A DNA stretch of 64,000 nt from Candidatus Collierbacteria bacterium GW2011_GWA2_42_17 (GTDB taxonomy: Bacteria; Patescibacteriota; Microgenomatia; UBA1400; MFAQ01), in contig LCDA01000002.1 of NCBI GenBank assembly GCA_000998275.1, forward strand, positions 46,708 to 110,707. The letters are read 5' to 3'. The first letter of the stretch is position 1, and each line of letters begins with the position of its first letter. Positions 5,921 through 51,939 of this stretch are shown piece by piece. The translations under genes were made by a program, and so were the position numbers. Under the pieces are notes generated by a model, which was not told where the DNA came from, did no database searches, and saw only the letters and a list, made by a program, of their open reading frames with translations.

Positions 5921-5971
5921 TTTCCACCTCCCAATTTCAATGTGATTTTATACCCAGAATTCTACCACTTT

Positions 5972-6223
5972 TTATCTTAAAATCCCCATCAACCTCATTT
6001 TTTTACCCCTGCTCATCTTTTTAATCTCCACTTCTCTCCTTGTAGCCTCACCTCTTCCCTGCACTTTTTCGCTGTAACGCAACAAAACAGGACCTCTCCC
6101 TTTGGTATACCTTGCCCCCTTACCCTCATTGTGCACCACCAAACGGCTTTGAATATCATCGGTTATCCCTGTATAAAATGTTCCGTCACGACACTCCAGA
6201 ATGTACACCAACCAGTCTTTCAT
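5972..6223 (-). CDS. GIY-YIG nuclease-domain protein (UPF0213/YhbQ-like)
   Basis: The sequence WLVYILECRDGTFYTGITDDIQSRLVVHNEGKGARYTKGRGPV is a GIY-YIG core (YIL...YTG). 83 aa. Confidence 0.6.
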   Translation of the reverse strand: MKDWLVYILECRDGTFYTGITDDIQSRLVVHNEGKGARYTKGRGPVLLRYSEKVQGRGEATRREVEIKKMSRGKKMRLMGILR

Positions 6224-6774
6224 CTTGTCACAATCTTCAACCTGGGTGCTGACAAGGTTATTACTCCATTGGTTGTTTTCCCTTCAATATAATACTGATT
6301 CTGCCCTCTCCAAATAGACATCGCTTTGGAATAAAAACTCTTTTTCCCGTCACTACTCGAAACATACTCGCTAAAGTCTACCGCTCGGTGATTGGTCGAG
6401 TCATAAAGCCGAACTGCTCCTGTTCCCTGTAACCACCCTTGCCAGGAAACCTCTACCGTCTTCCCGTACAAAGAAATGTCCAGAGTAAAGTCTGTCCCGG
6501 AAATTTTCGCCCAATCAAAGCTGTTTGTGTCTCCGCCCAACAAGGAGACAAAAGACTCTTTTGCTTTACTAGTACTCTTAGAAGAAATCAAACCAGCATT
6601 TTTTTCCAGATAATAAACCCTGTTTTCTAAAGAAGTTACTCTTTCTTCCATTGTCCTTGTGGTTGTCAAGGCCAAAACATTTTCGTTCCCCCTTGTTACT
6701 ACATCCCAAACCTTCCATCCGGCCAAACCGAACACCACCAACAATATCACTGCATAGGGTCTTTTTAGAGCCAT
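6220..6774 (-). CDS. Hypothetical membrane-anchored protein (184 aa, N-terminal TM)
   Basis: N-terminal hydrophobic helix. Overlaps the downstream GIY-YIG gene by 4 nt, so the two are probably co-transcribed. Confidence 0.45.
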   Translation of the reverse strand: MALKRPYAVILLVVFGLAGWKVWDVVTRGNENVLALTTTRTMEERVTSLENRVYYLEKNAGLISSKSTSKAKESFVSLLGGDTNSFDWAKISGTDFTLDISLYGKTVEVSWQGWLQGTGAVRLYDSTNHRAVDFSEYVSSSDGKKSFYSKAMSIWRGQNQYYIEGKTTNGVITLSAPRLKIVTR

Positions 6775-6791
6775 AAATCAGTCTAACACAA

Positions 6792-8207
6792 TCAAATCTT
6801 CTCCACTTTGGCACCCTCCGCGTAGTCTTCGACTCTGTATCCCCTGTCCTCAATTTCTTTACGCAAAGCATCAGACTGTTCCCAGTTTTTTGCTTTTCGA
6901 AACTCTTCTCTCCTGGTCAAAATTTCTTTTATATCCTCAGGAACTCCCATATTTTTTTCTTCTTCGGTTCCCAGGTTTAAACCCAAAACAGAGTCCATAA
7001 CGACGATTAGATTTTTCTTTGCTTCGTCTGATATCTCACTCTTCATCATTTCCCAAACAATGGAGAGCGCCGATGATGTATTCAAATCATCCTCCATCGC
7101 TTCCACAAACTTTTTATAATACTCGCCCCCCTCCGCAGACCATCCGTCGGCGGTTACCGGAATATCGGTCAAATCGACCACCATTTTATTTAATTTTGTC
7201 AAAGCTGTTTTTGCCCCGTTTAAACCTTCCCAGGTAAAGTTCATTTGTTTGCGATAGTGTGTCGTCAAAAAATAGTAACGCAGCGCCAATGGTGAAAAAC
7301 CCTTTTCCGCCAAGTCCGTCAATTTATACAAATTTCCCAAACTCTTGCTCATCTTTTTGCCATCAACCATCAAAAAAGCAGTGTGCATCCAGTACTTTAC
7401 AAATGGTTTTTTACCCGTTGCTGCCTCACTTTGGGCAATCTCATTTGGATGATGAATTGAAAGATGATCTTCCCCGCCGGTATGAATATCAAACTGCTCT
7501 CCCAAATACTTCATACTCATCGCCGAACACTCGATATGCCACCCTGGAAACCCATCTCCCCAAGGACTCTCCCAATGCATCACATGATTGGCAAATCTTC
7601 CCACTCTTTTAAACCATAATACAAAGTCCGCCGGATGTTTCTTGTGCTCCCCTGTCTCTACCTCTTCTCGAGCACCTACGGTTCTCTCATCAAAAGACTG
7701 ATTAAACATTTTGCCGTAATCAGCAAACTTTGTTACATCAAAATAAACCGCCTCGGGTGTGTCATATCCATACCCATTTGCCAAGATTCTCTCGATCAAG
7801 GCAATCTGTTCCGGTATATGTTCCGTCGCCTTACACACCACTGTCGGTGGCAACACATTCAACTGTTCCATCACTTTATTGAAATACTCGGTAAACTCCT
7901 CTGCCACTTCCCAAACGGTCTTGCCCATCTTTGCCGCCCCCTTCTCCATCTTGTCTTCACCACTGTCGGCGTCGGATGTTAAGTGTCCCACATCCGTCAC
8001 ATTCTGTACATGAGTTACTTTCAACTCCTCCAGAACCTCCAACACTCGTCGTAAGACATCATCATGAACGTACTTAATACCATGTCCAATATGAGTAAAG
8101 CCATACACCGTCGGGCCACACGCATACATCCCCACCTCTCCTTTATGGATTGGTTCAAAATCCTCCACCTTTTTTGTCAGACTATTATAGAGATGCAACA
8201 TATCCAA
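6792..8207 (-). CDS. cysS: Cysteinyl-tRNA synthetase
   Basis: Class I motifs HIGH (THIGHG) and KMSKS (KMSKSLGN), CysRS-specific residues (CGPTVYG, WHIECS), and 471 aa. Confidence 0.92.
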   Translation of the reverse strand: MDMLHLYNSLTKKVEDFEPIHKGEVGMYACGPTVYGFTHIGHGIKYVHDDVLRRVLEVLEELKVTHVQNVTDVGHLTSDADSGEDKMEKGAAKMGKTVWEVAEEFTEYFNKVMEQLNVLPPTVVCKATEHIPEQIALIERILANGYGYDTPEAVYFDVTKFADYGKMFNQSFDERTVGAREEVETGEHKKHPADFVLWFKRVGRFANHVMHWESPWGDGFPGWHIECSAMSMKYLGEQFDIHTGGEDHLSIHHPNEIAQSEAATGKKPFVKYWMHTAFLMVDGKKMSKSLGNLYKLTDLAEKGFSPLALRYYFLTTHYRKQMNFTWEGLNGAKTALTKLNKMVVDLTDIPVTADGWSAEGGEYYKKFVEAMEDDLNTSSALSIVWEMMKSEISDEAKKNLIVVMDSVLGLNLGTEEEKNMGVPEDIKEILTRREEFRKAKNWEQSDALRKEIEDRGYRVEDYAEGAKVEKI

Positions 8208-8234
8208 ATTGTACCGTAATAAGGCTTCAAATGC

Positions 8235-8678
8235 CTACTCCGCTATTCTTCCTTTTTCGGTTGTGGTCTGTGATCTATTTATTATTCTTTTTATCCAGGA
8301 CTCTTGCTCCATTTTTTTTCGATCGCTCTTTTCGATCTCCTGTCGTTTCTCCATCATTTTTTCTTCCGCAATCTTTTGATCCAGTACCCGTTTCCTTTGA
8401 ATATACCTAGACAGCTCATCTTTTACCTGTTCAAATCGTCTCTTTTCCGTCTCCTTCATTTCTCCACCAACCCTATTTCTTTCAGCTCCTTTATTTTGTT
8501 CCTTGTCTTCTGTTGCCTGCACCGCTTGACCACGAGACGATGAAATCTGCTCTATCGACTCGTGAGCTATATCTGCCACCGCCCCTGCCGTTCCTTTTAC
8601 GGCACTCTGACCAATCTCGAATAAATTGTCGGCCACGTTTTGACCAACTTGACCTAATACACCGGGCATTACCTTCAT
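8235..8678 (-). CDS. Hypothetical charged/coiled-coil protein (147 aa)
   Basis: ORF rich in K, E and R with heptad-like stretches. No family match. Confidence 0.4.
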   Translation of the reverse strand: MKVMPGVLGQVGQNVADNLFEIGQSAVKGTAGAVADIAHESIEQISSSRGQAVQATEDKEQNKGAERNRVGGEMKETEKRRFEQVKDELSRYIQRKRVLDQKIAEEKMMEKRQEIEKSDRKKMEQESWIKRIINRSQTTTEKGRIAE

Positions 8679-8721
8679 TTAATCACAAAAAGCCCCCTCT
8701 TCGGGGGCAATATCCAGTCTC

Positions 8722-8940
8722 TCAGTCTGCTTCTAGATAAAACGCAGGTCCCATACCGTCCTGAAGACCCTTGAAATATCCCTGCAAGTAATCAAAATTC
8801 ATGTCCGGTGTTACCTCAAACAACTTTTCACCGACAAAACAGGTAATCGTCACTCTTTCTCGAGAAACTTTTTCAAAAACCCTTTTACAGTAGGCTTCAA
8901 CTCGCTCACCATCAATCCTCTGTACTACAACCATTCCCAT
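8722..8940 (-). CDS. Small hypothetical protein (72 aa), in the slot just downstream of recR
   Basis: A short ORF directly after recR, in the position where Firmicutes carry yaaL. No motif confirmed. Confidence 0.35.
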   Translation of the reverse strand: MGMVVVQRIDGERVEAYCKRVFEKVSRERVTITCFVGEKLFEVTPDMNFDYLQGYFKGLQDGMGPAFYLEAD

Positions 8941-8977
8941 TTTTCCTCCTTCAAGGTGCTGTTATTGCCGTATTTTA

Positions 8978-9586
8978 CTACATCTCACTTCTACCCTCCA
9001 AAGCTCTCAGAAGTGTCTGTCCATCAGCGTACTCTACATCTGCCCCCGTCGGCAAACCTCTTCCGATTCTCGTAATCTTCATCCCCTTCCCAAGCTCCAT
9101 ATCCTTTATTTTGGACGTGATATACATCGCTGTTGCTTCTCCCTCCATATTTGGATTAGTGGCAATTACCATTTCCTTTATCTCTCCCGTCTTCACTCTG
9201 GCCAGTAGCTGTGGAATCCGCAAATCGTTTGGTCCGATGTTTGCCAAAGGATTAATTACTCCTCCCAGTACGTGGTATACCCCTTTATAACCATCCGCTC
9301 TTTCAAAAGCCAAAAGATCAAGGGCATTTTCCACTACACACACCTGGGATCTATCTCTATTCTCGTCCTGGCATACCGGACAAAACTCCTCTTCACCTAC
9401 GTTAAAACACAAGGCACAAAGCTTGGTGTTCTTTTTAAGATTTTCCAAAGCTTCACTAAACTTTGTTAGTTTTTCTTGTGGCACATTTAAAAGATAGTAA
9501 GCTAACCTCGCCGCCGACTTCGGCCCCACCCCAGGTAAAGACTCAAACGCATCAATCACTTTCTGAACCGGACGGATACTTCTCAT
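8978..9586 (-). CDS. recR: Recombination protein RecR
   Basis: HhH (LPGVGPKSAARLAYYLL), a C4 zinc finger (CALCFNV...CPVC), a Toprim-like domain, and a dnaX-ybaB-recR context. Confidence 0.92.
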   Translation of the reverse strand: MRSIRPVQKVIDAFESLPGVGPKSAARLAYYLLNVPQEKLTKFSEALENLKKNTKLCALCFNVGEEEFCPVCQDENRDRSQVCVVENALDLLAFERADGYKGVYHVLGGVINPLANIGPNDLRIPQLLARVKTGEIKEMVIATNPNMEGEATAMYITSKIKDMELGKGMKITRIGRGLPTGADVEYADGQTLLRALEGRSEM

Positions 9587-9593
9587 ATATCGA

Positions 9594-9887
9594 TTACATT
9601 CCCTTCGGCATATTAGCGAGTACTTTGGAAAGATCTCCCATCGAGTCTTTCATTTCTTCAGCTGAGTACTTCTGAGCCTTGGTAATGGCCTCATTAATCA
9701 CCTTGACCGCCTTATTCATATTCTCATCATCAATGAATAATTCTTTCAACTTTCCGTCACCCGTAACTATCGCTTTCACACCATCTTCCTCCACCTCGGT
9801 TTTGTGAGACTGAATCTTCTTTTGTAGTATTGCCAATTTTGCAATGGCGGCACCTTGTGAACCAAACTGTTTTATTCCGTTGAACAT
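9594..9887 (-). CDS. ybaB: Nucleoid-associated protein YbaB/EbfC
   Basis: 97 aa with YbaB-like sequence (TGDGKLKELFIDDE... core), located between dnaX and recR. Confidence 0.8.
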   Translation of the reverse strand: MFNGIKQFGSQGAAIAKLAILQKKIQSHKTEVEEDGVKAIVTGDGKLKELFIDDENMNKAVKVINEAITKAQKYSAEEMKDSMGDLSKVLANMPKGM

Positions 9888-12951: not shown

Positions 12952-13176
12952 CTATCTTAACTTAAAATACTCGAATAGCGCCTGGGCTCTGTCTGCCTCA
13001 TACAAAGCCGATTGTTTATTGCACACCGGGCAGGCAAAATATGGAACCTTATCCGGCAGTATGTCTTTAATGATCAGGTCTGCCGGTCTTTCTATTCGCA
13101 GAACTGAGCCGCAATAAAGACAGGTAACGTCCAAGGGGAATATGGAGTCCCCTCTCCTCAACACAATTATGGCCAT
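12952..13176 (-). CDS. Small zinc-ribbon protein (74 aa)
   Basis: Two Cys pairs (CLYCGS ... CPVCNK) suggest a Zn ribbon. No family match. Confidence 0.4.
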   Translation of the reverse strand: MAIIVLRRGDSIFPLDVTCLYCGSVLRIERPADLIIKDILPDKVPYFACPVCNKQSALYEADRAQALFEYFKLR

Positions 13177-18444: not shown

Positions 18445-18948
18445 ATGTTTTGGCTTGTTTGGCTACCGCTCGGTATCGTCGCTTTTCTCCTCATTGGACC
18501 CAAATTAAACAAAGAGTTAGGGTTTTGGATCGCAGACCAGGGAGGAACATTGCTTTGGGTTTTTGTTGTAGTGGCTGTGGTGTTCATTGGTTCAATAATT
18601 AACTCTTCTTTTGTCCCGCTTGCAAAAACAGTCTATCCGGATCTTAAAAACCCCATATATCTAACCCCAATACCCGGAAATCAAGATAATAAGTACCTCA
18701 TCTCTACCGAAGACTTAATACATGGCGAAAAATACACCCTCTACTTCTTAAACAGTGAAACCGGCATTCCGGAACAAATAACTTTCGACCATTCCCGGGT
18801 TCGAATTGTCTACGATAATCCTCCCCGACCCTTTTCTGCCAAAATTTTGTACACCTGCAAAGCCAAGCGTTTCTGGCTGTTGAACTGTACAAACCCTTCT
18901 CCGTACCTCTACGAGTTGCACCTTCCAACCGACCCAATCTTAAAATGA
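18445..18948 (+). CDS. Hypothetical membrane protein (167 aa, 2 N-terminal TM helices)
   Basis: A strong RBS (aaaaggagg) 8 nt upstream, hydrophobic N-terminus, and a terminator downstream. Confidence 0.5.
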   Translation: MFWLVWLPLGIVAFLLIGPKLNKELGFWIADQGGTLLWVFVVVAVVFIGSIINSSFVPLAKTVYPDLKNPIYLTPIPGNQDNKYLISTEDLIHGEKYTLYFLNSETGIPEQITFDHSRVRIVYDNPPRPFSAKILYTCKAKRFWLLNCTNPSPYLYELHLPTDPILK

Positions 18949-18956
18949 ACTCTCAC

Positions 18957-18994
18957 CCGCCTAACCACGGCGGGTTTTTATTGGTCAAATACTA
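18957..18994 (+). terminator. Rho-independent terminator (cccgcc-taaccac-ggcggg + T5); copy 1 of a 36-nt repeat
   Basis: GC hairpin plus a T-tract seen directly after the 18445..18948 gene. Identical to the copy at 19529..19565 except for one A. Confidence 0.8.
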
Positions 18995-19098
18995 AAACAG
19001 CACTACGGTTGTTGGCTTCTTCCTGCTTTAATTGACATCTCGTTACTATCGGATATAATCCTCCATATAAAGTTCTTTAACTCTTAAAGGAGGAACCC

Positions 19099-19521
19099 TT
19101 GGAAAACCGTGTCTTCGTCTCCAATCGTTATAAGTTCTTTCCCGATCTGCACACAAAGCTAAAACAGCAGCGATGTGATCTCGCCAACAAAGACGATATC
19201 CGCCTGGAATATAACCAGTATCACAACCTCTACCCCGAAAAGTACGCCCTTCTCGGACCGCCCATTGTCATCCAACACAAAAACATCTTCGGCAAAACTG
19301 TCACCTCTCATCCCAAATCGAGAGTCCTCTGTGGAGTAGAAACAAAATTCAAAAACGACTACAGCGACCTCATCGTTCATGTCAAGCTTTCGGTTTACGG
19401 TCAAAAAAATCTCGAGGCTGTCACTCTGATCGCCCAGGAGATTTATGCTCCTTTGTTGCCATCAACTGCCATCCACGTCATCGTCGACCTCGACTACGAA
19501 ATCTGGGAGTATCTTCTCTAG
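19099..19521 (+). CDS. Hypothetical protein (140 aa)
   Basis: RBS aaaggagga upstream. The gene is flanked by two copies of the same terminator. No family match. Confidence 0.5.
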   Translation: MENRVFVSNRYKFFPDLHTKLKQQRCDLANKDDIRLEYNQYHNLYPEKYALLGPPIVIQHKNIFGKTVTSHPKSRVLCGVETKFKNDYSDLIVHVKLSVYGQKNLEAVTLIAQEIYAPLLPSTAIHVIVDLDYEIWEYLL

Positions 19522-19528
19522 TTTGCCC

Positions 19529-19565
19529 CCCCGCCTAACCACGGCGGGTTTTTATTGGTCAATAC
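19529..19565. terminator. Rho-independent terminator; copy 2 of the 36-nt repeat. Bidirectional, since it overlaps the 3' end of folD.
   Basis: Same hairpin plus T-tract as 18957..18994. On the minus strand the hairpin is followed by a T-rich tract only partly (revcomp of aaccac...). Confidence 0.75.
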
Positions 19566-41214: not shown

Positions 41215-41907
41215 TTACTTAAAATTCGACCCTACAATGACCATCAAATCGACTGCCGGCTTATCCTCGGCGGACTGTGTGGCCACTTCTCCTCCAACCA
41301 ACTGAGCCAGTTGTATAGCCTGACTTCCCCATTTTCCGGTTAAGTCAATAACTAATGTTTTCTGATAATCTGTCGTCTTGGCGGTCGCTTTTGCCGTTAC
41401 CGAAATTCCCAAAACCTTTTTATCTTTTATTCTCTGTTCCAATGTATTTGTTAAACCCACCGTCTTCGTCCCGTTTACCAATACCACCTTCAAAGGATTA
41501 TTCACGTCTGTCCCTGTAATAGTCAGGGAACCGTCCCCAATATTCACTGGTACCACATCTACAATTACATTTTTTGTCGGGTTGTAAATGTATGCCTTTT
41601 GCGCAATCGAATATATCAATATTTTATCCCCATTCTCCGCCTTGGCAAAAACAGGCTGATCCTTAAGCTTTTCCTTATCCGTCACTGTCGCCATCACCGG
41701 TTCTTCTCCTTCGGGTAGAATGACCAACTTACCCACCAAAGCGACAACTTTTGCCGTCTCTTCTTTAGCAATCTTATTTGGATCTTCTTTCAGCACCTGT
41801 ATCTCTGTTTTTAATTGCCGATTTTCTTTTGAAAGTTTTATCAATCCCCCTATACCTCCAAAAACGATTAACAACACCGCCGCTAAGATAACTTTTCGTT
41901 TGTCCAT
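41215..41907 (-). CDS. LytR_C (LytR/CpsA/Psr C-terminal) domain-containing membrane-anchored protein
   Basis: N-terminal TM plus coiled-coil, and a C-terminal region with a LytR_C-like pattern (KVVLVNGTKTVGLTNTL...KTLVID.....DLMVIVGSNF). Confidence 0.5.
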   Translation of the reverse strand: MDKRKVILAAVLLIVFGGIGGLIKLSKENRQLKTEIQVLKEDPNKIAKEETAKVVALVGKLVILPEGEEPVMATVTDKEKLKDQPVFAKAENGDKILIYSIAQKAYIYNPTKNVIVDVVPVNIGDGSLTITGTDVNNPLKVVLVNGTKTVGLTNTLEQRIKDKKVLGISVTAKATAKTTDYQKTLVIDLTGKWGSQAIQLAQLVGGEVATQSAEDKPAVDLMVIVGSNFK

Positions 41908-41953
41908 ATGTTTGTAATTAATTTAACTAAAAAACCACAATATTTCAAGTGTT

Positions 41954-44900
41954 TTACAAATTTCCACTTTCACTAGCCGTCTCCGTCGGCGTTATTACTA
42001 CCACTGGCGTTGGCGTAGGCGTCTCTGTTGGACTTGGGGTTGAGCTCAACTCAGTTGTAGGAGTTGGCGTTATGGTAGTTTCCAGTATTGGAGTTGGTTC
42101 AGGTGTTACCGTTTCACTTGGCAGGTCAACAACTCCCCCACTTCCTTCAAACTTGCCTGTTTCATTTACTGCTAGAGCAACCCAGGCAAATCGTAAATCC
42201 ATGCCGACTCCTCTACTCAAACGAATCTTAAAGCCTCTGGTATTTACATCGGCAATAGCATAACCGGGAATGTCGGCAACCGAAGCACCTCCTACAATTT
42301 GCACCGTGGCAGTTACCACTGGTTCGTCTTTATATTCTCTCTCAAACAAAATCTCCACTTGGCTGCCTCCAGTTTTAATCGTGGCAAAACCTGCTGTGTC
42401 TTTATTAAACGTTGGCCTTCCGACAAAGTTTACCTCTCCTCTAAAGATCACTTTGCCCAAAAACTCTACTGTGTTCCTAAACACCTCAGCTATTTTCTTG
42501 GAAATTAGGTCTAATATATCAATCTCACTCGAAGTATCACTTTGTATTTCACCGGCAGCCGTGGCCACTCCTGCTACCCGATCACTCAACAGACTCAGTT
42601 TCCTGGTCAAGATATCCACTCCTTCGATCCTCCCGGCCTTTATCGTATCTGCGTAAAGTATTCCTGAAAAAGTGGCGTCACCCGACACTAGTAGGTCCTG
42701 TGTCACCACTTTTGGAGTTATTATTTCCAGTCCGGCAACCACTCTGTCAGCTATTATGTCGGACATGTTTGCCGAGTCAGTCGCAACTTGATTTTTTTCC
42801 ATAATCAGATTAGTCAGCACCTCATAACCATTAGCTACATCAATTCCCTTCATCACTTCAGTAAGATTACTTCCGGTACTGTTACCATTCTTCACAAAAA
42901 CAATTACGACTCCAACTCCTTCTCCGTCATATCCGGTCATCGCCGTCCCAATTATTGCTCCGGCCTTTGTTGCTCTCATCGCCACCCCAGGAATGGATGA
43001 AGAAGTCAGATAATCTCCGGCCTTGATTTCCCCATTTTCCGCCGACACTTTTACTGGCACCCTTCCCGAAAGAGCTACCAGTACCGGAGTTCCCGATACA
43101 TTTCCGTCACCAAGCACCATTCCCGGTTTTGTCGATACTATTCCCAGTACTGTGGAATCATAAGTCTTTCTGGATTTCTGGACGCCATTCTGAATTGAAC
43201 TGTCAACAGAAACGACGTCTCCTTCAGCTATTGAGCCATCATTCGATGAATACACTTCCGCCAAATCAGCCCCGCCGACCTTGAAAGCTTCCAAGAAGCT
43301 ACCTGCTTTAACCGTCACGTTCGTTCCCACCCCTGCCGTATTTTCGGCAAACTGAAAATTGAAGGTCCCTGCCGTTGCTCCGGTAGTGATAATTCCCTGA
43401 ATCCAGACATCAAAACCTTGACCTGCATCTGAAGCAATATTGTTATTAACCATCTCGGCTGGGGTTGTACAGTCTGTAGTTAATGCTTGTAGAAATACAG
43501 CTCCTACTGACTCAGATCCCGACTGCTGAACACTACAAGTGGTAGCTGCAGGACCAAGAATCGCTGCTTTCCAATCCGGCCCGTTACTGCTTCCGTTAGT
43601 TACAATCAGATGCAGTCTGAACACCCAAGATTCACTGGCCGCCATTGAAAACTGTAAAGCTGTATCATTGGTCAGGGTGGTACTATTGGTCACCGCCTGG
43701 TCAGTAGATTTAGTAATAAACAACTTATCTCCCCCAATACAGTTTGTCCAAGCACCGTTTTGGTAACATCTGAATTTATTAGTACTAGTGTTGTAATAGG
43801 TAGCCCCGTTTGTTCCGATTGGATCGGCCGTTCCGTTATCCAGCACCAACAAATCTGGTGTCGCCGTGGCGCTGTTTCCGATTACTACCCTTCCTGTCGA
43901 CGATGTTGGACCAACCATAAAGTTCACATTTCCAGTTCCGGAATATAAGTTTAAAGCCGTTGCACCAGTTGTATTACCCATCGTTATCGTCTTTGCATTG
44001 GCATTGGTACCAATATTAATTGCTCCGGTTGTTCCCGAGTCGAGTGTCACTGTTCCTGTTGTTCCGGTTGTAAAGGACAGATTTCCGGAAGTACCGGTTA
44101 GTAAAGTAATTCCTCCCGTACCGGAGTTGATGTTGACCGAAGTAGACGTATTAGTATTTCCTAAGGTAATCGCTTTTGCCGAAGCTCCGGTTCCAATATT
44201 TAGAGACATCGCCCCGGTCCCTGTAAATAAATTTGCCGTCCCCGTTTGGGCAGTTCCTCCCATCGTAAAGGTTCCATTCGTCGTCGAAGTTCCGAAAGAA
44301 TACGTTGTTGCCCCTGCTCCATCCAAAATAAAGTTCCCCGTACCCGCATACATATTTAGGGCACCCGTTCCCGTCGCACTACCAATCGTAATTGTTTTTC
44401 CGGTCGCGCTATTACCGATGTTTATCGCCCCGACACCGGAATCGATATTAATCGCCTGAGCCAGTGTCGCGTTTCCAATAGTCACTCCACCAGCCGCCGT
44501 TGTATCAATTATCGGAAATGACCTGGCAAAAATACCCAAAGGTGCCGCCGTCGATGACGGTAATGTCCGAGCATTCAAAATATACTGTGATCCCGCACCA
44601 TTTATTGCCGCCGTCGTCTCCCCAAAAGTAAACGCTGTTTTTACGGCTGTTGTCAAAGCAAAGTTCCAAGCCTGTGCATTGTCGCCATTAGCAATGGTAC
44701 TTCCACCTAAAGCAGCCGAAATTGAATCGAGACTGGTACCACTTGCACTACAAGCCCACGCCGTCCCACTATATTTAAGAATCTCTCCCGATGAACAAGT
44801 TCGAAGTAATGACAAACCGGTACTATTTACTAACCCACCGCCGGTACTTAGTTGAACTGCCGAACCCGATACTTTATTTGCCGTTGTGATTGTTGATAGG

Positions 44901-47275
44901 CTAGTATCAGCAATATTGGAAAGTGTATTCAAACTGGCATCTATTGTTTTATTTGTCAAAGCTATCGCAGTGTCCGTCAAAACGACTTTTGTTCCGGTTC
45001 TGATTCTTGCCACACCACCAGTTTGATCAGTAATCACAAACTCTTCGGACGAAGTTGTCGCCGGTCCGAACTGAAGCGTCGTTACTGCTCCAACCGATGG
45101 AGAACCGTCTGATTCTGCCACGGTCACGGATCCTCCGCCTGTTGAATCCGCACTACATGTCCAACCGGTAGCCGCCGTCCATTTTAGAATTTGATTATCA
45201 CTACAAGTCCTAAGTAGCGACAAACCGGAATCATTCACCAAACCACCATTGGCATTTAATGTCGGTGACCCCGATGTACTATCCGTATTACACACCCAAG
45301 ACGTTCCATTGTATTTAAGGATCTCTCCTGATGCGCAGGTTCTGAGCAAAGACAAGCCAGTACTATCTACTAACCCACCGCCGGTACTTAGTTGAACTGC
45401 TGAACCCGATACTTTATTTGCCGTTGTGATTGTTGCCAAATTGGCATCGGTTATTCCCGCAGTCCCGGATAAATTTGAGTTCGTAAGTCCGGAAATAGTA
45501 TTGGCTCCGGCGGCAATCGTTTTATTTGTTAACGTCCCTGACTCATTCAGAAATACAAAGGTGTCATTCCCCGACAAAGCCGGAATCGTCGCTGTTCTAC
45601 TGGCACTTGGTGCTGTAGAGGAAATCGTTGTCGTATTGGTTGTTCCCAATACCAGCTGATTATTTACCTTGGTCAGTGTAAGTGAATTAAACGTTGGTGT
45701 CGCTGTTGAATCGATATTTTGGATCGTATTCACCGACCCACTAACTACACTAAAGTTTGTTGAGTTATAGTTTGCTACTCCTTTTAATGTTGTTGAGGCG
45801 TCCACTCCGGCAATTGTTACTGTTCCTCCAAGAGATACCGGTGAACCGCTCACCGAAATTCCACTCCCCGGAGAGACAAAGATACTACTGTTGGATAGCT
45901 GGCCATTGGTAATACCCGCAGAGGCCGCTAGATTAGCCGAGGTTAATCCTGAAATAGCTGTGTTCGTTACTCCACTCACTCTCCCGTTTGCGTCGGTCGT
46001 CAACACCGGAATGTCTGTCGCTGTGCCGTAGGTTCCGGCTGTTCCCACGCTGGGTAACACTCCCGCAATATTTATCGTTGTCCCGGACGCAGTTACCGTA
46101 TTTAATCCGCTGCCGGTAATCGTAAGACCCCCGGTTAAACTATTTATACTTGATACTCCCGTCCCCACCCCACTTACCGACTGACACTCCCATGAATCTC
46201 CATCCCAACTCAACACCTGGTCTATCGAACAGCCCGTCAAAAGACTCAAACCCGAGTCATTTGTTAACCCCCCTCCGCCTCTCAACGATACTGCGGCTCC
46301 GGATACTTTATTTGCCTCGGTAATTTGAGCCAGTTTTGCATTAGTTATCTCTCCATCACCAATTTTTCCCGACGTAATTGTCCCATCTGTTATTTTGGCT
46401 CCAGTCACAGCGGAATCAGCCAGTTTGATGGTCGTCACCGCCCCGTCAGCCAACTTCAGAGTTGTTATCGAACCATTTACAATCTGGGCATCACCAACCA
46501 CCCCACTATTGATTATGGCCAATCCGGTCACTGGATCTATCGTAATGGCTCCGGAAACTACCGATGGTGTAGGGGATATTTCTGCCCCTGGAAGAATCAC
46601 CGTCACGGTTTCTTGAGCTTGATCTAACCATTTAAAAACCTCTTTTCCAACAGCTGCAGTAGCTATATCCACCTCCTGCAAAGACGGTGTAATGCTTATA
46701 TTTTCAAAATTACCTCGAGTATCTATCGTACCCAAAATTTGGGAATTATCTTTTAGACTTCGCAGATCCACGTCCCCAACCATCTTACCGCCGTTTATTC
46801 TGCCGTTAATTATTTTTACGGGGAGCGTTGTTCCGTCGGTCAGTGTTATACCAACCACTCCGTGTAACACAATCATGGCGTTCTCTATTACTCGATTATC
46901 GTCATCATAGATATTTACCGTCCCCTTTATTTCCTGGGTCAGTTTTGCCTCACCATTTTGATAAACAAGTTCTGTAAGATCAACGTATTTTTCATTTTGA
47001 ATCTGTGCGTTTTGAACTTTTACAAATGCGTACTCTCCGTTGGTTCGTGCTATTACCAAATATGGCTGATTGCCCAAATTGCTCTCTGACAATACCTCCG
47101 GAGTTACTTCCGAAACAGCCTGAATTGTCACTTGTTTTTCAACAACAGCAGGCTTGATCTTGCCGCCACTAATTGCAAAAACAACCCCTCCCCCAGTAAT
47201 CACAAAAAACAGAATCAAGATAAAACGCACTACCTGATCATATTTATTTCCAGTAATTAGCTGAGAACCTTCCAT
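41954..47275 (-). CDS. Giant (1773 aa) N-terminally anchored repetitive surface protein, tail-fibre/adhesin-like
   Basis: N-terminal TM. Short (I/L)TxxKLADGAVT-type repeats. Four copies of a module ANKVSGSAVQL.TGGGLVxSTGLSLLRTC...ILK(Y/W)...W.C with a conserved Cys pair. Long G/T/S/N-rich beta-like tracts. A C-terminal PT-rich linker. The start codon abuts the stop of the upstream gene. Confidence 0.8.
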   Translation of the reverse strand: MEGSQLITGNKYDQVVRFILILFFVITGGGVVFAISGGKIKPAVVEKQVTIQAVSEVTPEVLSESNLGNQPYLVIARTNGEYAFVKVQNAQIQNEKYVDLTELVYQNGEAKLTQEIKGTVNIYDDDNRVIENAMIVLHGVVGITLTDGTTLPVKIINGRINGGKMVGDVDLRSLKDNSQILGTIDTRGNFENISITPSLQEVDIATAAVGKEVFKWLDQAQETVTVILPGAEISPTPSVVSGAITIDPVTGLAIINSGVVGDAQIVNGSITTLKLADGAVTTIKLADSAVTGAKITDGTITSGKIGDGEITNAKLAQITEANKVSGAAVSLRGGGGLTNDSGLSLLTGCSIDQVLSWDGDSWECQSVSGVGTGVSSINSLTGGLTITGSGLNTVTASGTTINIAGVLPSVGTAGTYGTATDIPVLTTDANGRVSGVTNTAISGLTSANLAASAGITNGQLSNSSIFVSPGSGISVSGSPVSLGGTVTIAGVDASTTLKGVANYNSTNFSVVSGSVNTIQNIDSTATPTFNSLTLTKVNNQLVLGTTNTTTISSTAPSASRTATIPALSGNDTFVFLNESGTLTNKTIAAGANTISGLTNSNLSGTAGITDANLATITTANKVSGSAVQLSTGGGLVDSTGLSLLRTCASGEILKYNGTSWVCNTDSTSGSPTLNANGGLVNDSGLSLLRTCSDNQILKWTAATGWTCSADSTGGGSVTVAESDGSPSVGAVTTLQFGPATTSSEEFVITDQTGGVARIRTGTKVVLTDTAIALTNKTIDASLNTLSNIADTSLSTITTANKVSGSAVQLSTGGGLVNSTGLSLLRTCSSGEILKYSGTAWACSASGTSLDSISAALGGSTIANGDNAQAWNFALTTAVKTAFTFGETTAAINGAGSQYILNARTLPSSTAAPLGIFARSFPIIDTTAAGGVTIGNATLAQAINIDSGVGAINIGNSATGKTITIGSATGTGALNMYAGTGNFILDGAGATTYSFGTSTTNGTFTMGGTAQTGTANLFTGTGAMSLNIGTGASAKAITLGNTNTSTSVNINSGTGGITLLTGTSGNLSFTTGTTGTVTLDSGTTGAINIGTNANAKTITMGNTTGATALNLYSGTGNVNFMVGPTSSTGRVVIGNSATATPDLLVLDNGTADPIGTNGATYYNTSTNKFRCYQNGAWTNCIGGDKLFITKSTDQAVTNSTTLTNDTALQFSMAASESWVFRLHLIVTNGSSNGPDWKAAILGPAATTCSVQQSGSESVGAVFLQALTTDCTTPAEMVNNNIASDAGQGFDVWIQGIITTGATAGTFNFQFAENTAGVGTNVTVKAGSFLEAFKVGGADLAEVYSSNDGSIAEGDVVSVDSSIQNGVQKSRKTYDSTVLGIVSTKPGMVLGDGNVSGTPVLVALSGRVPVKVSAENGEIKAGDYLTSSSIPGVAMRATKAGAIIGTAMTGYDGEGVGVVIVFVKNGNSTGSNLTEVMKGIDVANGYEVLTNLIMEKNQVATDSANMSDIIADRVVAGLEIITPKVVTQDLLVSGDATFSGILYADTIKAGRIEGVDILTRKLSLLSDRVAGVATAAGEIQSDTSSEIDILDLISKKIAEVFRNTVEFLGKVIFRGEVNFVGRPTFNKDTAGFATIKTGGSQVEILFEREYKDEPVVTATVQIVGGASVADIPGYAIADVNTRGFKIRLSRGVGMDLRFAWVALAVNETGKFEGSGGVVDLPSETVTPEPTPILETTITPTPTTELSSTPSPTETPTPTPVVVITPTETASESGNL
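44767..45436. repeat. Two near-identical (2-3 mismatches) intragenic direct repeats of about 130 bp, 540 bp apart, inside the giant gene
   Basis: 44767..44896 against 45307..45436, compared by eye. They correspond to module copies 2 and 4. More diverged copies lie at about 45180-45260 and 46180-46330. Confidence 0.85.
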
Positions 47276-47277
47276 TT

Positions 47278-49263
47278 CTATTTTTCCCCCATCCTTCTCG
47301 TGGTCTTAATAAAAATAATAGAGGTCAGCATCACAATCCCTATGATTAGAAATAATATAAGCAACCAAGTTAACCACGATAGGTTCACATCAAGCACTTT
47401 TTGAACCGGCTCGGAAACAATAACCGTCAATCCATACTTCGAAAGCTTACTTGATCCGAATAAGGAATGTAGTCCTCTCCAGTTATATCCCTCCATATTT
47501 ACCGCGTTTGTTTTCCATAGATCGTAACTACCGTCAGCCTCATTCACCACTACCCCCAGTCTGTCGGCATTAGGGTGTACTACCATTTTTCCTCCCTCCC
47601 CAACCACAACGACTTCCTGTCCCAATGTACTATCACCTACCCTCTGGAGTTCACTTGATAGATTTACTCCTGAAACAGCCACAAATAAAACACCCGATAC
47701 CACATTTTTTGTGTTGACTGTCGGAACGGCAATCAAGAAAACGTCATCAACTCCCTCAATTAAATTTTCTAAGGCCATCGAAACATATGTTTTCCCAGTG
47801 TTTAGTGTTGAGTTAAAAAACTCAGCACCTGCAAAACTAGACGAGTTAAACATTGCCGAGGTTGGATAAGAGGCGATCGGTTCCCCATCTGCCTCAATTA
47901 CACCAGCGATAGCCACATCGGTTCTTCCTAAAGATAAAAACTTCAACTGGTCTGCAAGCTCTTTACTTTGCGAACGAACAAAGGCCTTAATAAACACTTC
48001 ATTCTTTGATAAATCAGTCACTCCTTGTGTCAAACCATCGATGGTTCTTGATAACTCCACCCTGGCAAAATCGGCCTTTTCAGAAAGTCCTCGGTTTGCA
48101 TTACTGATTAAAGTTCCCTGAACCACAGCAATCATCAAAATCACCAATATGAAGCACATGAGAACTGAACCAAAAACTTTAAACACCAAGGTGCGCTCTG
48201 AAACCAACCTGGCCTTAAACGAGTCCCAGGATGGCAAAACCATACCTATTAAACCTGCGATTAGAGTCGCAAAGAACCTTGACCAATAATTCTCTATACC
48301 GTAATAGAGTGCCAAACTACAAAGTATCAATCCATAAGCAAACGAAATACTCTTCAGAAATCTCTTGTTCCAAAAAAATCCATAAAGACCGAAGGCAATC
48401 AGTACCAATATTAACAGGCTTAAAAGCCATCCTAAACCACCAAATACCGACTTTAATCCCAAAGTTACTACTGACAGGTCTGAGCCGTCAGGAAAAAAGT
48501 TTAAAGCAATAAACACACTAATTAGTAATCCAAAAATATATAGCATATACAAAGTTGAAGACTCAACTTCGCTCAAAGCCTCAATCAAAATCACCAAACC
48601 AAACAAGCCGTGAATCAAAAAACCGTCAATGTCTCCTCCTGAAAACAAAACTACCGCTAACCCCAAAAAGGTAGCCCCCAAAAAATATCGGAAAATATTT
48701 GTCAGGTTCACTGTACGTCCAACCTCTTCTTGAATCATCGAAGCTAGAATCAAACCAAACCCTCCAAATATCATTCCCAAACGAACTGGATTTAACCAAA
48801 GAGACAGTCTTCCTAGGGATAAAACATCCTGTTGGTTAGAGTACAAAAACAGAGACATTCCCAAAACAATAGATGTCAGGCTTATTAACCAGTCAAACAG
48901 CGTCGGAAATCCTACTCTTTCCACCAACCACAGTCTCATCGTATGCAAAAAAGACTCTCCACTCAGATCCGACAGACTTTTTCCTGGTCTCGGTGTTGGT
49001 AATAATGCGCTAGGTAATACATCTTGTTGTGATAATATCGCTACTCCTTCTTTTTTACTCGTGGTAGGTTTTTCTTTGGACTCGATTATTTCTCCTTCAC
49101 CCTTGTTGCCTTCAAACTTCTTAATTTCCAGCTCTGGAATTCTAAATTTTCCCTTACCGATTCTGACGGAATTTATCAAACCCTCTTTCAAAAAACCATA
49201 GATGCTATTTGTTGAGTAACCAAGAATCTTGGCGGTCTCTGAAACCGAGTATGTTTTCTTCAT
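47278..49263 (-). CDS. Membrane protein with an N-terminal excisionase/MerR-like HTH, about 10 TM helices, a C-terminal extracytoplasmic Cache-like domain and a final TM (661 aa)
   Basis: N-terminus MKKTYSVSETAKILGYSTNSIYGFLKEGLINSVRIGKGKFRIP (HTH_17-like). A long hydrophobic core. The C-terminal soluble region resembles a Cache/sensor domain, followed by WLTWLLILFLIIGIVMLTSIIFI. Confidence 0.65.
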   Translation of the reverse strand: MKKTYSVSETAKILGYSTNSIYGFLKEGLINSVRIGKGKFRIPELEIKKFEGNKGEGEIIESKEKPTTSKKEGVAILSQQDVLPSALLPTPRPGKSLSDLSGESFLHTMRLWLVERVGFPTLFDWLISLTSIVLGMSLFLYSNQQDVLSLGRLSLWLNPVRLGMIFGGFGLILASMIQEEVGRTVNLTNIFRYFLGATFLGLAVVLFSGGDIDGFLIHGLFGLVILIEALSEVESSTLYMLYIFGLLISVFIALNFFPDGSDLSVVTLGLKSVFGGLGWLLSLLILVLIAFGLYGFFWNKRFLKSISFAYGLILCSLALYYGIENYWSRFFATLIAGLIGMVLPSWDSFKARLVSERTLVFKVFGSVLMCFILVILMIAVVQGTLISNANRGLSEKADFARVELSRTIDGLTQGVTDLSKNEVFIKAFVRSQSKELADQLKFLSLGRTDVAIAGVIEADGEPIASYPTSAMFNSSSFAGAEFFNSTLNTGKTYVSMALENLIEGVDDVFLIAVPTVNTKNVVSGVLFVAVSGVNLSSELQRVGDSTLGQEVVVVGEGGKMVVHPNADRLGVVVNEADGSYDLWKTNAVNMEGYNWRGLHSLFGSSKLSKYGLTVIVSEPVQKVLDVNLSWLTWLLILFLIIGIVMLTSIIFIKTTRRMGEK

Positions 49264-49427: not shown

Positions 49428-49601
49428 ATGGCAAAAAAAGGACCAAGACAAAGTATGGGTTTAAAATGCTCCAAATGCGGGCACTTCAACTATATCTCTG
49501 AACGAAACAAAACCAACACCCCCGAAAAACTTGTCATCAGCAAGTACTGCCGTACCTGTCGTGAGCATACCGACCATAAAGAGGTTTCCAAATTAAAGTA
49601 A
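49428..49601 (+). CDS. rpmG: 50S ribosomal protein L33; absent from the ORF track because it is under 60 aa
   Basis: Hand translation gives MAKKGPRQSMGLKCSKCGHFNYISERNKTNTPEKLVISKYCRTCREHTDHKEVSKLK, i.e. the L33 C4 zinc ribbon and KYC..C..HT.HKE motif. The rpmG-tRNA-Trp-secE-nusG context is classic. Confidence 0.9.
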   Translation: MAKKGPRQSMGLKCSKCGHFNYISERNKTNTPEKLVISKYCRTCREHTDHKEVSKLK

Positions 49602-49727
49602 TCCTTCTTCTCTTGTTTTCAACTCTTCCCTATTTATTAGGTAATTTTTTGCACCACTGCATCAAACTGATATATAATCCATCATCTGAACTAAGTTCTG
49701 TACTTTGAATTTAATGGGGAGGCAGCG

Positions 49728-50285
49728 ATGTCATACTGGATATGCTACGAAAACTTGGACCGAACAAGCGGTCATTCGGGTATTCGAGGTCGGGATAATC
49801 TAGAAAGTAAATCCGTGTCTCGACGAAAAGATAGTGTAAAAGAATACCGAAAAAACCCCAACAAGCGGATCATCGCAGAAGGAATTACTCACGATGAGGC
49901 TCTGAACTTAATGGCCCTCACGCCGGAAATCTGTCGACTAACCACCACCGTCGATGATATCTTCGGTCAGTTCAACAGGATTGATAAAGAAACTAAAAAC
50001 GTTATCTCCTTCCTGTTCGACGCCTACGAACAAATCATCGAAGATCGAAAACTCAAAGAAAAAGCCGGTATTACTCCGACAGGAAACTATCTTGATGTTT
50101 TTGTCGATGTCCACTCGGGCAATACGGGGAAATATCTCATCTTTCGCAAGATGAACACTCTTTTTGATGTCCTTCCGGACGGAACCATCGTCGATCTCAA
50201 AGAAGCCATTTTGGCTTTAGGTAAGGAAATCATGGCTGTCGCCCTTGAAAATCAAATTACCATCTGGAATGAAGAAAATAACTAG
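49728..50285 (+). CDS. Hypothetical protein, paralog A (185 aa)
   Basis: Homologous to 50507..51016 (MSYW/MSYY start; IIAEGITHDEALNLMALTPEICRLTTTVDDI against VIAEGISEGKSYQIIQLTPEICLLTAAIEKI). Followed by a terminator. Confidence 0.55.
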   Translation: MSYWICYENLDRTSGHSGIRGRDNLESKSVSRRKDSVKEYRKNPNKRIIAEGITHDEALNLMALTPEICRLTTTVDDIFGQFNRIDKETKNVISFLFDAYEQIIEDRKLKEKAGITPTGNYLDVFVDVHSGNTGKYLIFRKMNTLFDVLPDGTIVDLKEAILALGKEIMAVALENQITIWNEENN

Positions 50286-50292
50286 CTTACAA

Positions 50293-50315
50293 ACCCCGCC
50301 TCAGCGGGGTTTTTA
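50293..50315 (+). terminator. Rho-independent terminator (ccccgc-ctca-gcgggg + T5)
   Basis: Seen directly downstream of paralog A. Confidence 0.8.
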
Positions 50316-50430
50316 GTGCCAAGGAAACCCCGGACCAATGCGAGGCGAAATCCGAGTCTGTCCGGAAAGGACGTCATTTATACCCACGATCTAGTCGTAA
50401 CGGCCACTGTTCCGAAATAATTCATTCAAA

Positions 50431-50452
50431 TCCGCCAATCGGCGGGTTTTTG
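50431..50452 (+). terminator. Rho-independent terminator (ccgcc-aatc-ggcgg + T5); the same hairpin as at 51024
   Basis: Hairpin plus T-tract inside the paralog A-B intergenic region. Confidence 0.7.
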
Positions 50453-50506
50453 TATCTAAGGTGTATAATCCACACCAAAGAACCTTAAATTTCAAAGGAG
50501 AAAATC

Positions 50507-51016
50507 ATGTCATATTACGTTGTCTTTGAGTACACAACCAAAGCCGGAGGATACGCAGGGATACGAACAGCGATTGATTACCAAAACAAGGAGAATTTTA
50601 CTCTCCTCAACCCTACTTTAAACGGCCTATCTACAGTCATTGCTGAGGGTATATCAGAAGGAAAGTCCTACCAAATAATTCAACTCACCCCAGAAATATG
50701 TCTTCTAACGGCTGCTATCGAAAAAATTGATCTCGCCACCAATGGCAGTTTCAACTTTGATAAAAGTCACGGTTTTCTACGAGAAGCATGGGAAACAATC
50801 TACAACAATCGTTTGAATAACAAGGCTGACGGTCTTGTTGTAAAACCTGACTTTCAAGTGGTTGAACCCACTCAAGAATATTCCAATAAAAACCATCTCA
50901 TGATATTTGTCAAAAACAAATTTACCAACACCGACGGGTCAATTGACGATAATCTTCAAATCGCTATCATGGACATTGAAGGTGAAATATACAAAATGAC
51001 TGAAACAAAGCACTAG
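50507..51016 (+). CDS. Hypothetical protein, paralog B (169 aa)
   Basis: RBS ggagaaaatcATG. Paralogous to 49728..50285. Confidence 0.55.
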   Translation: MSYYVVFEYTTKAGGYAGIRTAIDYQNKENFTLLNPTLNGLSTVIAEGISEGKSYQIIQLTPEICLLTAAIEKIDLATNGSFNFDKSHGFLREAWETIYNNRLNNKADGLVVKPDFQVVEPTQEYSNKNHLMIFVKNKFTNTDGSIDDNLQIAIMDIEGEIYKMTETKH

Positions 51017-51023
51017 ACACAAA

Positions 51024-51045
51024 CCCGCCAATCGGCGGGTTTTTT
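51024..51045 (+). terminator. Rho-independent terminator (cccgcc-aatc-ggcggg + T6)
   Basis: Seen directly downstream of paralog B. Confidence 0.8.
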
Positions 51046-51076
51046 ATGCTCAATCTGCTAAAATACGTATAACCCT

Positions 51077-51147
51077 AGGGGTGTAGTTCAATGGTAGAAT
51101 CCGGGTCTCCAAAACCTGTGATGAAGGTCCGATTCCTTCCACCCCTG
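51077..51147 (+). tRNA. tRNA-Trp (anticodon CCA); 3' CCA not encoded
   Basis: Acceptor AGGGGTG/CACCCCT, D-stem GTTC/GAAT, anticodon loop CTCCAAA, T-arm GAAGG-TCCGATT-CCTTC. 71 nt. Confidence 0.85.
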
Positions 51148-51215
51148 CAAATTATTTAGCCTCAAAAAACTATATCAGACTATCCTAGACCCTGAGGGAA
51201 TACTGAACATTGAAG

Positions 51216-51770
51216 CTATTTCTTACTAAAAATCTTTTCAAATTCTGAGATTCCTTTAAGAGTGGCCAAGTCGATAATCAAAGCTTTAGCATCTTCTATA
51301 CTTTTCCAGCCAGTTGTATAAAACTCCGTATCTAATAAAGCTTGGTCAGGTTTAAAATCCACCTCCGAGAGAGGAATAAAATACCAAATATCAAAATGTT
51401 GCTTACATTTTATTGTCGGGTGTTGAATTGGATTTATTGTCAGCAATTTTGGCTTACCAATACTTTGTAAATCCACCTTTACGACACCCCACTCTTCACC
51501 CATTTCTCTTTCCAGAGCTTCTTCAGGAATCTCCCCTTTATCTATATGACCACCATTAAAAAGCCAAAGACCTGACTTCTTGTGGTGTCCAACAAAAACT
51601 TTTCCTGCTTCGCGGTCAAAACCTGCAAAACAAACACAAAAATGAGAGTGTGGATTTTCGTCTCTGGTTAGTTCACCCTCTTTAGCTCTACTTATATATT
51701 CTGAGGCAACGGGCGAAGCTGGATGTTCCGAAGCGATTTCATTTATCCTTTCGGCAAGTCTTTCGGTCAT
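51216..51770 (-). CDS. NUDIX hydrolase
   Basis: Nudix box GGHIDKGEIPEEALEREMGEEWGV (GX5EX7REUXEEXGU). 184 aa. Confidence 0.8.
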   Translation of the reverse strand: MTERLAERINEIASEHPASPVASEYISRAKEGELTRDENPHSHFCVCFAGFDREAGKVFVGHHKKSGLWLFNGGHIDKGEIPEEALEREMGEEWGVVKVDLQSIGKPKLLTINPIQHPTIKCKQHFDIWYFIPLSEVDFKPDQALLDTEFYTTGWKSIEDAKALIIDLATLKGISEFEKIFSKK

Positions 51771-51939
51771 AACGTAATTTTAACTTTTCAATATATTGAA
51801 AGCAATTACTGGTTGAGGAGCAATAAAGGTTTCCAGAAAGTATATGCCAATGCATGATATGCGAAGAATTTTTTTGTTTATTATGGTTACGAAGGAATCA
51901 AAACTGTAATTAATATTACTTTTCTGCTAGGATTTAGGT

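Follow-up and report, generated by a model that had tools for sequence, protein, structure and literature searches.

Integron cassette arrays comprise an IntI-type tyrosine recombinase, an attI site and promoterless cassettes with attC sites (R''/L''-L'/R', GTTRRRY). Tandem or fail-safe intrinsic terminators occur between convergent or closely packed bacterial genes, and type II toxin-antitoxin systems consist of two small co-transcribed genes of one operon that usually overlap or lie a few bases apart. In genomes of the Candidate Phyla Radiation (CPR), orphan protein families are common and very many genes carry no annotation. Lineage-restricted CPR protein families have reportedly been surveyed by Meheust et al. 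in 2019. Here we describe two neighboring genes of such a family, A and B, which lie between rpmG and a tRNA-Trp gene in Candidatus Collierbacteria bacterium GW2011_GWA2_42_17 (contig LCDA01000002.1, positions 46,708 to 110,707); this whole stretch of 64,000 nucleotides (nt) is called the window below. We consider it fairly probable, though well short of certain, that the locus is a two-unit array of self-contained single-gene units carrying ancient A-type and B-type paralogs of an orphan family of Candidatus Collierbacteria (Microgenomates, CPR). Each unit would consist of an open reading frame (ORF) preceded by a -10-like box, a short leader and a strong Shine-Dalgarno sequence and followed by an intrinsic terminator. 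Gene A would end at a terminator of its own, the 25-nt direct repeat around gene B would reflect local turnover of units through recombination between look-alike terminators, and the 111-nt spacer before the left copy of that repeat would be a functionless relic of this turnover.

A sequence-only reading of the window had placed two ORFs of 185 and 169 amino acids (aa) in the slot between rpmG and tRNA-Trp, and both were found there at those sizes. The features of the slot are given here with folding free energies and z-scores against shuffled sequence for the hairpins:

49428-49601, plus strand: rpmG (ribosomal protein L33; Pfam Ribosomal_L33, E=5e-16), left border of the slot
49673-49722, plus strand: gene A signals as read from the sequence, TATAAT (49673-49678), GTACTTTGAATT (49700-49711) and GGGGAGG (49716-49722)
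49728-50285, plus strand: gene A, ORF of 185 aa, A-type subfamily of the orphan family
50291-50315, plus strand: gene A's own predicted intrinsic terminator (AAACCCCGCCTCAGCGGGGTTT plus T run), -15.2 kcal/mol, z=-4.85
50316-50426, no strand assigned: 111-nt spacer, probably a non-coding relic, with no homology, promoter or RNA family found in the searches given below
50427-50451, plus strand: left copy of the 25-nt direct repeat, a terminator hairpin, -13.1 kcal/mol, z=-4.0
50464-50500, plus strand: gene B signals as read from the sequence, TATAAT (50464-50469), GAACCTTAAATT (50480-50491) and AAGGAG (50495-50500)
50507-51016, plus strand: gene B, ORF of 169 aa, canonical B-type of the orphan family
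51020-51044, plus strand: right copy of the 25-nt direct repeat, gene B's predicted terminator, -15.7 kcal/mol, z=-5.63
51077-51148, plus strand: tRNA-Trp (CCA; ARAGORN; Rfam tRNA, 63 bits), right border of the slot

Genes A and B are paralogs, as their common N-terminus and core had led the sequence-only reading to propose: pairwise BLASTP gave 52 bits, E=2e-13 and 29% identity over 173 columns, and the alignment takes in the MSY(W/Y) start, (I/V)IAEGI and LTPEIC. Orthologs of gene A share 51-97% identity (word-indexed protein search, 11 relatives). The product of gene B is 100% identical to hypothetical protein UV37_C0017G0002 of Candidatus Collierbacteria bacterium (GW2011_GWA1_42...; 40 contigs), and its next-best relatives, from a word-indexed search that gave five and from the copies used for the tree, share 32-42%. 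In a neighbor-joining tree of 17 copies, gene A of the window forms one clade (47-87% identity) with the copies of L002, L013 and L008, the third copy of L018 and the first of L001 (handles of this form denote the contigs fetched for comparison). All other copies in the tree, window B included, are of the canonical YxVVFEY...GGYxGxR types and share 24-45% identity with each other. Since the A clade spans several genomes, the split between A and B is older than the divergence of those genomes, and hence ancient. Gene B is absent from the closest A-type relatives (L002, L008 and L013), which calls for either two losses or one gain, and the relatives of window B (at most 42% identity) are too distant to choose between them.

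Evidence for self-contained units comes from the DNA upstream of each gene. Before each copy come, always in this order, the previous terminator, a -10-like TA(T/C)AAT box, a stretch rich in C, a leader motif and a strong Shine-Dalgarno sequence. The leader motif is GAACCTTAA(A/C)T generally and GTACTTTGAATT in the A clade. The block upstream of gene A is nearly identical before the A orthologs of L002, L008 and L013, and the layout of the gene B signals also precedes family genes in L001, L004, L006 and L018. Because these signals match consensus sequences, the units would be expected to be transcribed separately and strongly, and the signals as a set suggest high expression. Within the 64-kb window, the only exact GAACCTTAA is the one upstream of B; in five other genomes it precedes family genes, as do most exact copies at other loci. 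A looser form, G[AT][AT]C.TTTAA.T, stands before unrelated first genes of the window at 13176(-), 18445(+), 19099(+), 26092(-), 29295(-) and 33424(-), and also before two non-family genes at other loci. A leader that regulates this family specifically was considered and rejected, as the looser motif also precedes unrelated genes and is thus a general leader feature of these genomes. Many first genes, those at 49728(+) and 50507(+) included, have the looser motif between their -10-like box and their Shine-Dalgarno sequence. It is conserved at other Microgenomates loci as well and may mark transcript 5' ends or act in translation as a general signal.

The terminators show how the units are delimited. 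The hairpins proper (50291-50312, 50428-50449 and 51021-51042) each form a 9-bp stem around a 4-nt loop, with at least five T behind it, and with GC-rich stem, short loop and T run all three look like intrinsic terminators. The first begins 5 nt past the stop codon of gene A (AAACCCCGCCTCAGCGGGGTTT), where the sequence-only reading had correctly noticed a third terminator. An identical hairpin follows the A ortholog of L008 and close variants follow those of L002 and L013; these three orthologs thus have A's own terminator and not the shared hairpin. The other two contain CCGCCAATCGGCGGG and sit in the 25-nt direct repeat, the copies of which are 24/25 identical in the window; in L028 the substitution T50431C makes the left copy 25/25 identical to the right. 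For the 15-mer CCGCCAATCGGCGGG 0.06 chance occurrences are expected in the window, and it matches only at these two sites. The same hairpin had been assigned to each of the two genes. Both copies do stand at the places given for them, but they bracket the B unit only, the left one starting 142 nt past the stop codon of A. No similarity between the flanks outside the 25-nt repeat was found with blastn or tblastx.

Pairs of matching hairpins are not confined to this family. Elsewhere in the window a perfect 33-nt repeat (CCCGCCTAACCACGGCGGG plus TTTTTATTGGTCAA; 18956-18988 and 19530-19562) brackets an unrelated ORF of 140 aa (19099-19521) that has no Pfam match, and the layout of this twin-hairpin locus at 18.4-19.5 kb is the same in all 23 contigs read. 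The locus spans 18445-19562, and its left 33-nt copy (18956-18988) terminates a predicted membrane protein of 167 aa. In L018, a perfect 25-nt hairpin repeat brackets the first family copy and a 72%-identical hairpin follows the second; in L001, three hairpins differ only in their loops. The proteins of the L018 and L001 arrays are at most 38% identical. As twin hairpins recur around unrelated or distant ORFs, near-identical terminators on neighboring units are independent of the kinship of the ORFs, and by the same argument the twin hairpins around B cannot be taken for leftovers of the duplication that gave A and B. They may have arisen by unequal crossing-over or gene conversion between look-alike terminators, or by Campbell-type insertion of circular units. 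A further arrangement was seen in L012 (scaffold_13388, sample SAMN03842445; 2325-2490), where the terminator of B is followed by about 125 nt of foreign sequence that resembles the 3' end of a minus-strand ORF, a 10-N gap, a second hairpin copy and then tRNA-Trp; either a further insertion at the hairpin or an artefact of assembly could explain it.

The slot itself recurs. The family occupies the place between rpmG and tRNA-Trp in most other contigs fetched, with one to four copies depending on the genome. Upstream of the family genes, rpmG has the same position in L004, L006, L007, L008 and L013, and tRNA-Trp follows the family genes in L001-L009, L012, L013 and L019. The arrangements are:

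L004: rpmG, tadA-like deaminase, two family copies, an ORF of 77 aa, tRNA-Trp
L006, L007 and L019: rpmG, two family copies, an ORF of 408 aa, tRNA-Trp
L001: deaminase, four family copies, tRNA-Trp
L018: three family copies
L002/L003, L008 and L013: one A-type copy, then tRNA-Trp directly

A distant member in L017 has a similar neighborhood (prs, phosphoribosyltransferase, D-Ala-D-Ala ligase and acetyltransferase), with tRNA-Trp 2.4 kb upstream. In the window, tRNA-Trp is followed by a NUDIX hydrolase on the minus strand and then by ribose-phosphate pyrophosphokinase. On the other side of the slot, minus-strand genes at 41215-49263 (230 aa; 1773 aa; 661 aa with HTH_17 and dCache_1) part tRNA-Thr from rpmG in the window, L002, L008 and L009, and in L004, L006 and L013 the tRNA cluster is no more than a few hundred bases away from rpmG. 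In L002/L003, an A-type-only relative, an island beside tRNA-Trp (5636-9700) encodes a serine recombinase (Resolvase/Recombinase/Zn_ribbon_recom) and small helix-turn-helix (HTH) proteins and looks like an integrated element.

How does this locus compare with the systems named at the outset? On present evidence the closest description is an uncharacterised, lineage-restricted CPR family in a tandem array of variable copy number. Like other lineage-restricted CPR families, it is seen mainly in Microgenomates-like genomes and has no named family, annotation or Pfam model; it goes beyond that class in its confident two-domain models, fixed slot, variable tandem copies and members with a doubled N-terminal module (N-module) or Cys-rich extensions. 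The likeness to chromosomal integron arrays is one of layout: a near-identical imperfect palindrome comes after each short ORF, relatives differ in the ORFs that they carry, and single units stand between direct repeats. Unlike integron cassettes, however, each unit here has its own promoter-like box and Shine-Dalgarno sequence, and unlike attC sites the palindromes are 22-nt GC stems with T runs (intrinsic terminators) that have no attC core. The Pfam-annotated neighbors of the family at 20 loci include no integrase (the window as a whole was not scanned for one), and the only recombinase seen at family loci is the serine recombinase of L003. As with fail-safe terminators, two strong hairpins with T runs stand in series after gene A and before the next promoter, but here the second copies the terminator of the next gene and 111 nt of unexplained sequence lie between the two. 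A type II toxin-antitoxin pair was rejected: the genes are paralogous and 221 nt apart, two terminators lie between them, the second gene has a -10 box and a Shine-Dalgarno sequence of its own, and PADLOC gave 0 matches.

Alternatively, B-like units could be mobile cassettes: a circular intermediate with one hairpin would recombine with an identical chromosomal hairpin (Campbell-type), so that the cassette would end up between direct hairpin repeats, much as in an integron array made of terminators. Direct repeats of 25-33 nt, perfect or nearly so, do flank single self-contained units in three cases (window B, window 19099-19521 and the first copy of L018); the relatives without B (L002, L008 and L013) have A's terminator and then tRNA-Trp; the L012 scaffold has foreign DNA between two hairpin copies at B's terminator; and copy number and order differ among genomes. 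On these grounds such cassettes deserve consideration, but we judge them unlikely. No recombinase is linked to the arrays (that of L003 belongs to the tRNA-Trp island), an identical cassette was not seen at two different places, and the layout is constant in all B-carrying contigs read as well as in those read for the 18.4-19.5 kb locus. Searches of viral contigs, phage records and plasmid records gave no member of the family, the hairpins as read carry no attC-like GTTRRRY core, and the L012 insertion spans a scaffold gap, so that an assembly effect is possible there.

The spacer can be weighed in the same way. The sequence-only reading had found no ORF that explains 50316-50430, and this stands: the only one is an ORF of 34 codons with a GTG start (50316-50420), in frame with gene A, which a 1-nt insertion shifts out of frame in L009. 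The same strain has two substitutions in the only local hairpin (50359-50373), L028 has two further substitutions in the spacer, and the two variant strains each differ from the window at two to three positions. Searches with blastn and tblastx found no similarity between the spacer and the fetched loci or the rest of the window, and the family profile gave no match in any frame (best bit scores negative). A relic of a family gene was accordingly rejected, as these searches showed no similarity to a family member, a neighboring gene or the window. A structured RNA was rejected too: the folding z-score against shuffles is -0.31 on the plus strand and +0.72 on the minus strand, and Rfam 15 gave nothing at the gathering threshold for 50316-50450 (the best were RsmY with 17.5 bits against 57, Trp_leader with 20.7 against 41 and AbsR28 with 20.9 against 50). 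These sub-threshold matches touch terminator-like parts, and none covers the spacer itself. The spacer is most likely functionless, unconstrained non-coding DNA left by past turnover in the slot.

A minor alternative is that 50316-50450 encodes a small RNA, or that the transcript of gene A reads through into it as a 3' extension, in either case with a terminator of its own. It would account for the strong terminator hairpin at the end of the stretch, for a G+C content above that of neighboring spacers and for the retention of the stretch in every strain with B. We nevertheless think it quite unlikely: no promoter-like site was found upstream on the plus strand, and the transcript would start right behind a strong terminator; folding on that strand is no better than in shuffles; no Rfam family reaches threshold; the substitutions and indel of L009 fall in or just after the only local hairpin; and the other genomes fetched have no counterpart.

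The origin proposed by the sequence-only reading, tandem duplication of one gene-plus-terminator unit that gave A and B each the same terminator, does not hold up well. It has in its favor that A and B are paralogous, that near-identical hairpins lie downstream of both, and that tandem expansion occurs, with three copies in L018 and four in L001. However, gene A has a different terminator 5 nt past its stop, kept in L008, L002 and L013; the split of the genes predates several lineages and the proteins have fallen to 29% identity, yet the hairpins remain 24/25 to 25/25 identical; nothing is alike beyond the 25 nt; and identical hairpins at 18956/19530 likewise bracket an ORF that is unrelated. 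We regard a duplication of this kind as very unlikely. Our preferred reading, an array of separate units around ancient paralogs, takes the resemblance of the hairpins as a product of recombination at the terminators.

Variation between strains is concentrated in gene A. Compared with L009, gene A differs at 21/558 nt (15 synonymous and 6 nonsynonymous codons) and the spacer between rpmG and A at 12/126 nt, versus 1/510 in B, 9/1986 in the upstream gene of 661 aa and 0 in rpmG. Across window 49602-50285, comparison with L009, L010, L011 and L028 gave 3.4-3.8% divergence in gene A and 9.5% in the rpmG-A spacer, against less than 0.5% in flanking genes. This looks like an imported or long-kept divergent allele, presumably under purifying selection. 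In L012, an in-frame loss of 45 nt from gene A (window 50093-50127) shortens the protein from 185 to 170 aa and, by our mapping, would fall in the variable loop of the predicted structure of A. The layout is identical in every contig read that carries B. Just beyond the slot, the NUDIX hydrolase gene (51216-51770, minus strand; window 51150-51859) varies between strains: some have it, and L009 and L028 lack it cleanly. Over the full length of the window (1-64000), GC skew stays strongly negative (-0.10 to -0.37 per 2-kb bin), even where genes are on the plus strand.

The family to which A and B belong is larger than word-indexed searches indicate. Such searches gave few relatives (5 for B and 11 for A, with a third protein search of this kind adding little), and a genome scan and a metagenome scan keyed on LTPEIC yielded no more than 2 and 3 loci. 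Counted in representative clusters, an exhaustive profile search queried with 14 aligned members gave 229 at E<=1e-3; of these, 99 reach E<=1e-10 and 19 reach E<=1e-30. Among these relatives and clusters there was no informative name, the label being only "hypothetical protein". The family had been called uncharacterised from the sequence alone, and database searches bear this out. For A and B, the best Pfam score (E=0.0095) was 15.9 bits, well below the cut-off of 25, and over 105 aligned members no Pfam family was matched by more than one. NCBIfam and PADLOC gave 0 matches each, PHROGs no significant match (E>=0.058) and a profile search of PDB sequences no match. No relatives were found in IMG/VR viral contigs, INPHARED phages or PLSDB plasmids, and a phage or plasmid origin of the family was rejected on that result.

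Structure prediction, which the sequence-only reading had suggested, gave confident models of both proteins: AlphaFold returned a predicted local distance difference test score (pLDDT) of 94.9 and a predicted template modeling score (pTM) of 0.89 for A (105 sequences), and 87.6 and 0.84 for B (14 sequences). Neither model had a significant match among PDB folds or any match among viral folds (BFVD). The two models have one common topology. The N-module, of about 60 residues, runs strand-strand-helix-strand-helix; a bundle of long helices starts at LTPEIC, and a variable loop lies at about residues 109-126. The N-terminal module is conserved and the helical C-terminal half, a domain of about 110 aa, evolves faster. 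The proteins are soluble and acidic, of about 170-185 aa, with isoelectric points of 5.5 and 4.9 and slightly hydrophilic grand averages of hydropathy (GRAVY) of -0.33 and -0.43 for A and B. A second, degenerate copy of the N-module was seen in the members P0030, P0069 (L001 2746-3567) and P0135, two full repeats in P0080, and Cys-rich, zinc-ribbon-like extensions in P0132 and P0140; from these members, the module of about 60 residues is apparently an independent building block.

Across the 105 members the most conserved positions (in B numbering) are Y3, V5, V6, E8, G15, G18, R20, A54, T61, P62, A70, I98, R102 and G144. R20 is kept in 104 of 105 and P62 in 101 of 105, and Cys65 of LTPEIC is replaced in 23 of 105 (by Ser in 15 and Ala in 8). 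These motifs look structural, with T-P-E as a putative helix N-cap, the glycines as a strand-connecting loop and Glu8/Arg20 as a possible pair, and the cap and loop glycines suggest that conservation is structural rather than catalytic. Our best guess, held with low confidence, is that these are non-enzymatic binding or scaffold proteins, perhaps abundant ones.

Could the family be a divergent accessory subunit of transcription or translation, either like RNA polymerase epsilon (YkzG/RpoY, Pfam PF07288) and phage T7 Gp2, or a stand-in for the N-domain of ribosomal protein L9? The best compact local match in Foldseek was Geobacillus YkzG (PDB 4njc; probability 0.63, target TM-score 0.53, 52 columns). 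This match is weak; a strand-strand-helix-strand order over about 50 residues of the N-module is shared with YkzG/RpoY and Gp2, and the conserved place among translation genes and the apparently strong expression signals would suit such a role. Even so, it seems highly improbable. At E=1.0 the Foldseek match is not significant, no similarity to YkzG/RpoY shows at the sequence or profile level, and the proteins carry an additional helical domain of about 110 aa. An hhalign comparison of the 105-member profile with Bacillus subtilis epsilon gave a probability of 0.4%, and one with L9 gave 0.1% (a rough test with an approximate L9 query); both identities were rejected on these values. None of the 105 members matched Pfam RpoY or L9, and a copy number of one to four, B-types that are 24-45% identical and allele replacement among strains are atypical for core machinery. 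A coding spacer, either as the 34-codon ORF (in frame with A, its stop 7 nt before the hairpin) or as read-through of gene A into a frame that stays open for 44 codons past its TAG, is scarcely credible, for the ORF has no Shine-Dalgarno sequence and is frameshifted in L009, A's terminator would lie inside the extension, the orthologs of L002, L008 and L013 end at the matching position, with the same terminator or one nearly identical to it immediately behind, and a 44-codon open frame is no rarity by chance (by our estimate, a probability of about 0.07-0.12).

Several points weigh against the preferred reading of self-contained units that turn over at their terminators. First, the promoters and terminators are consensus matches only. 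Second, among the loci compared no empty site or intermediate arrangement was found that displays the gain or loss of a unit directly. Third, the spacer is kept in every contig or strain that carries B and has a GC content of about 50% (counted from the sequence), above typical intergenic DNA; retention and GC content may leave room for a function. Two more concern the proteins: the fold search covered solved and viral structures, and a fold relative may exist among uncharacterised proteins; and the nearly invariant Arg20 may, together with the conserved Glu8, Arg102 and Lys128, make up a ligand or catalytic site and not a structural core.

From the evidence so far, A and B make an ordinary pair of old paralogs, and the twin terminators at the locus are an unexplained lead. 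A far bolder idea, to which we give only a small chance, is that Microgenomates shuffle self-contained units at terminator hairpins that would serve as terminator and attachment site at once, so that the slot would be an integron-free cassette array and the orphan family, with a new fold, its commonest cargo. What the analysis does provide is a family that is pinned down, with at least 229 clusters, two confident models without a relative in PDB or BFVD and a fixed address by rpmG and tRNA-Trp. Its copy number shifts between close relatives, and it is tractable for structure determination and pull-downs. The recurrence of identical terminators around unrelated single-gene units is a clue to how genes are gained and lost in reduced genomes, and if the terminators are indeed recombination sites, they would constitute a new route of gene turnover.

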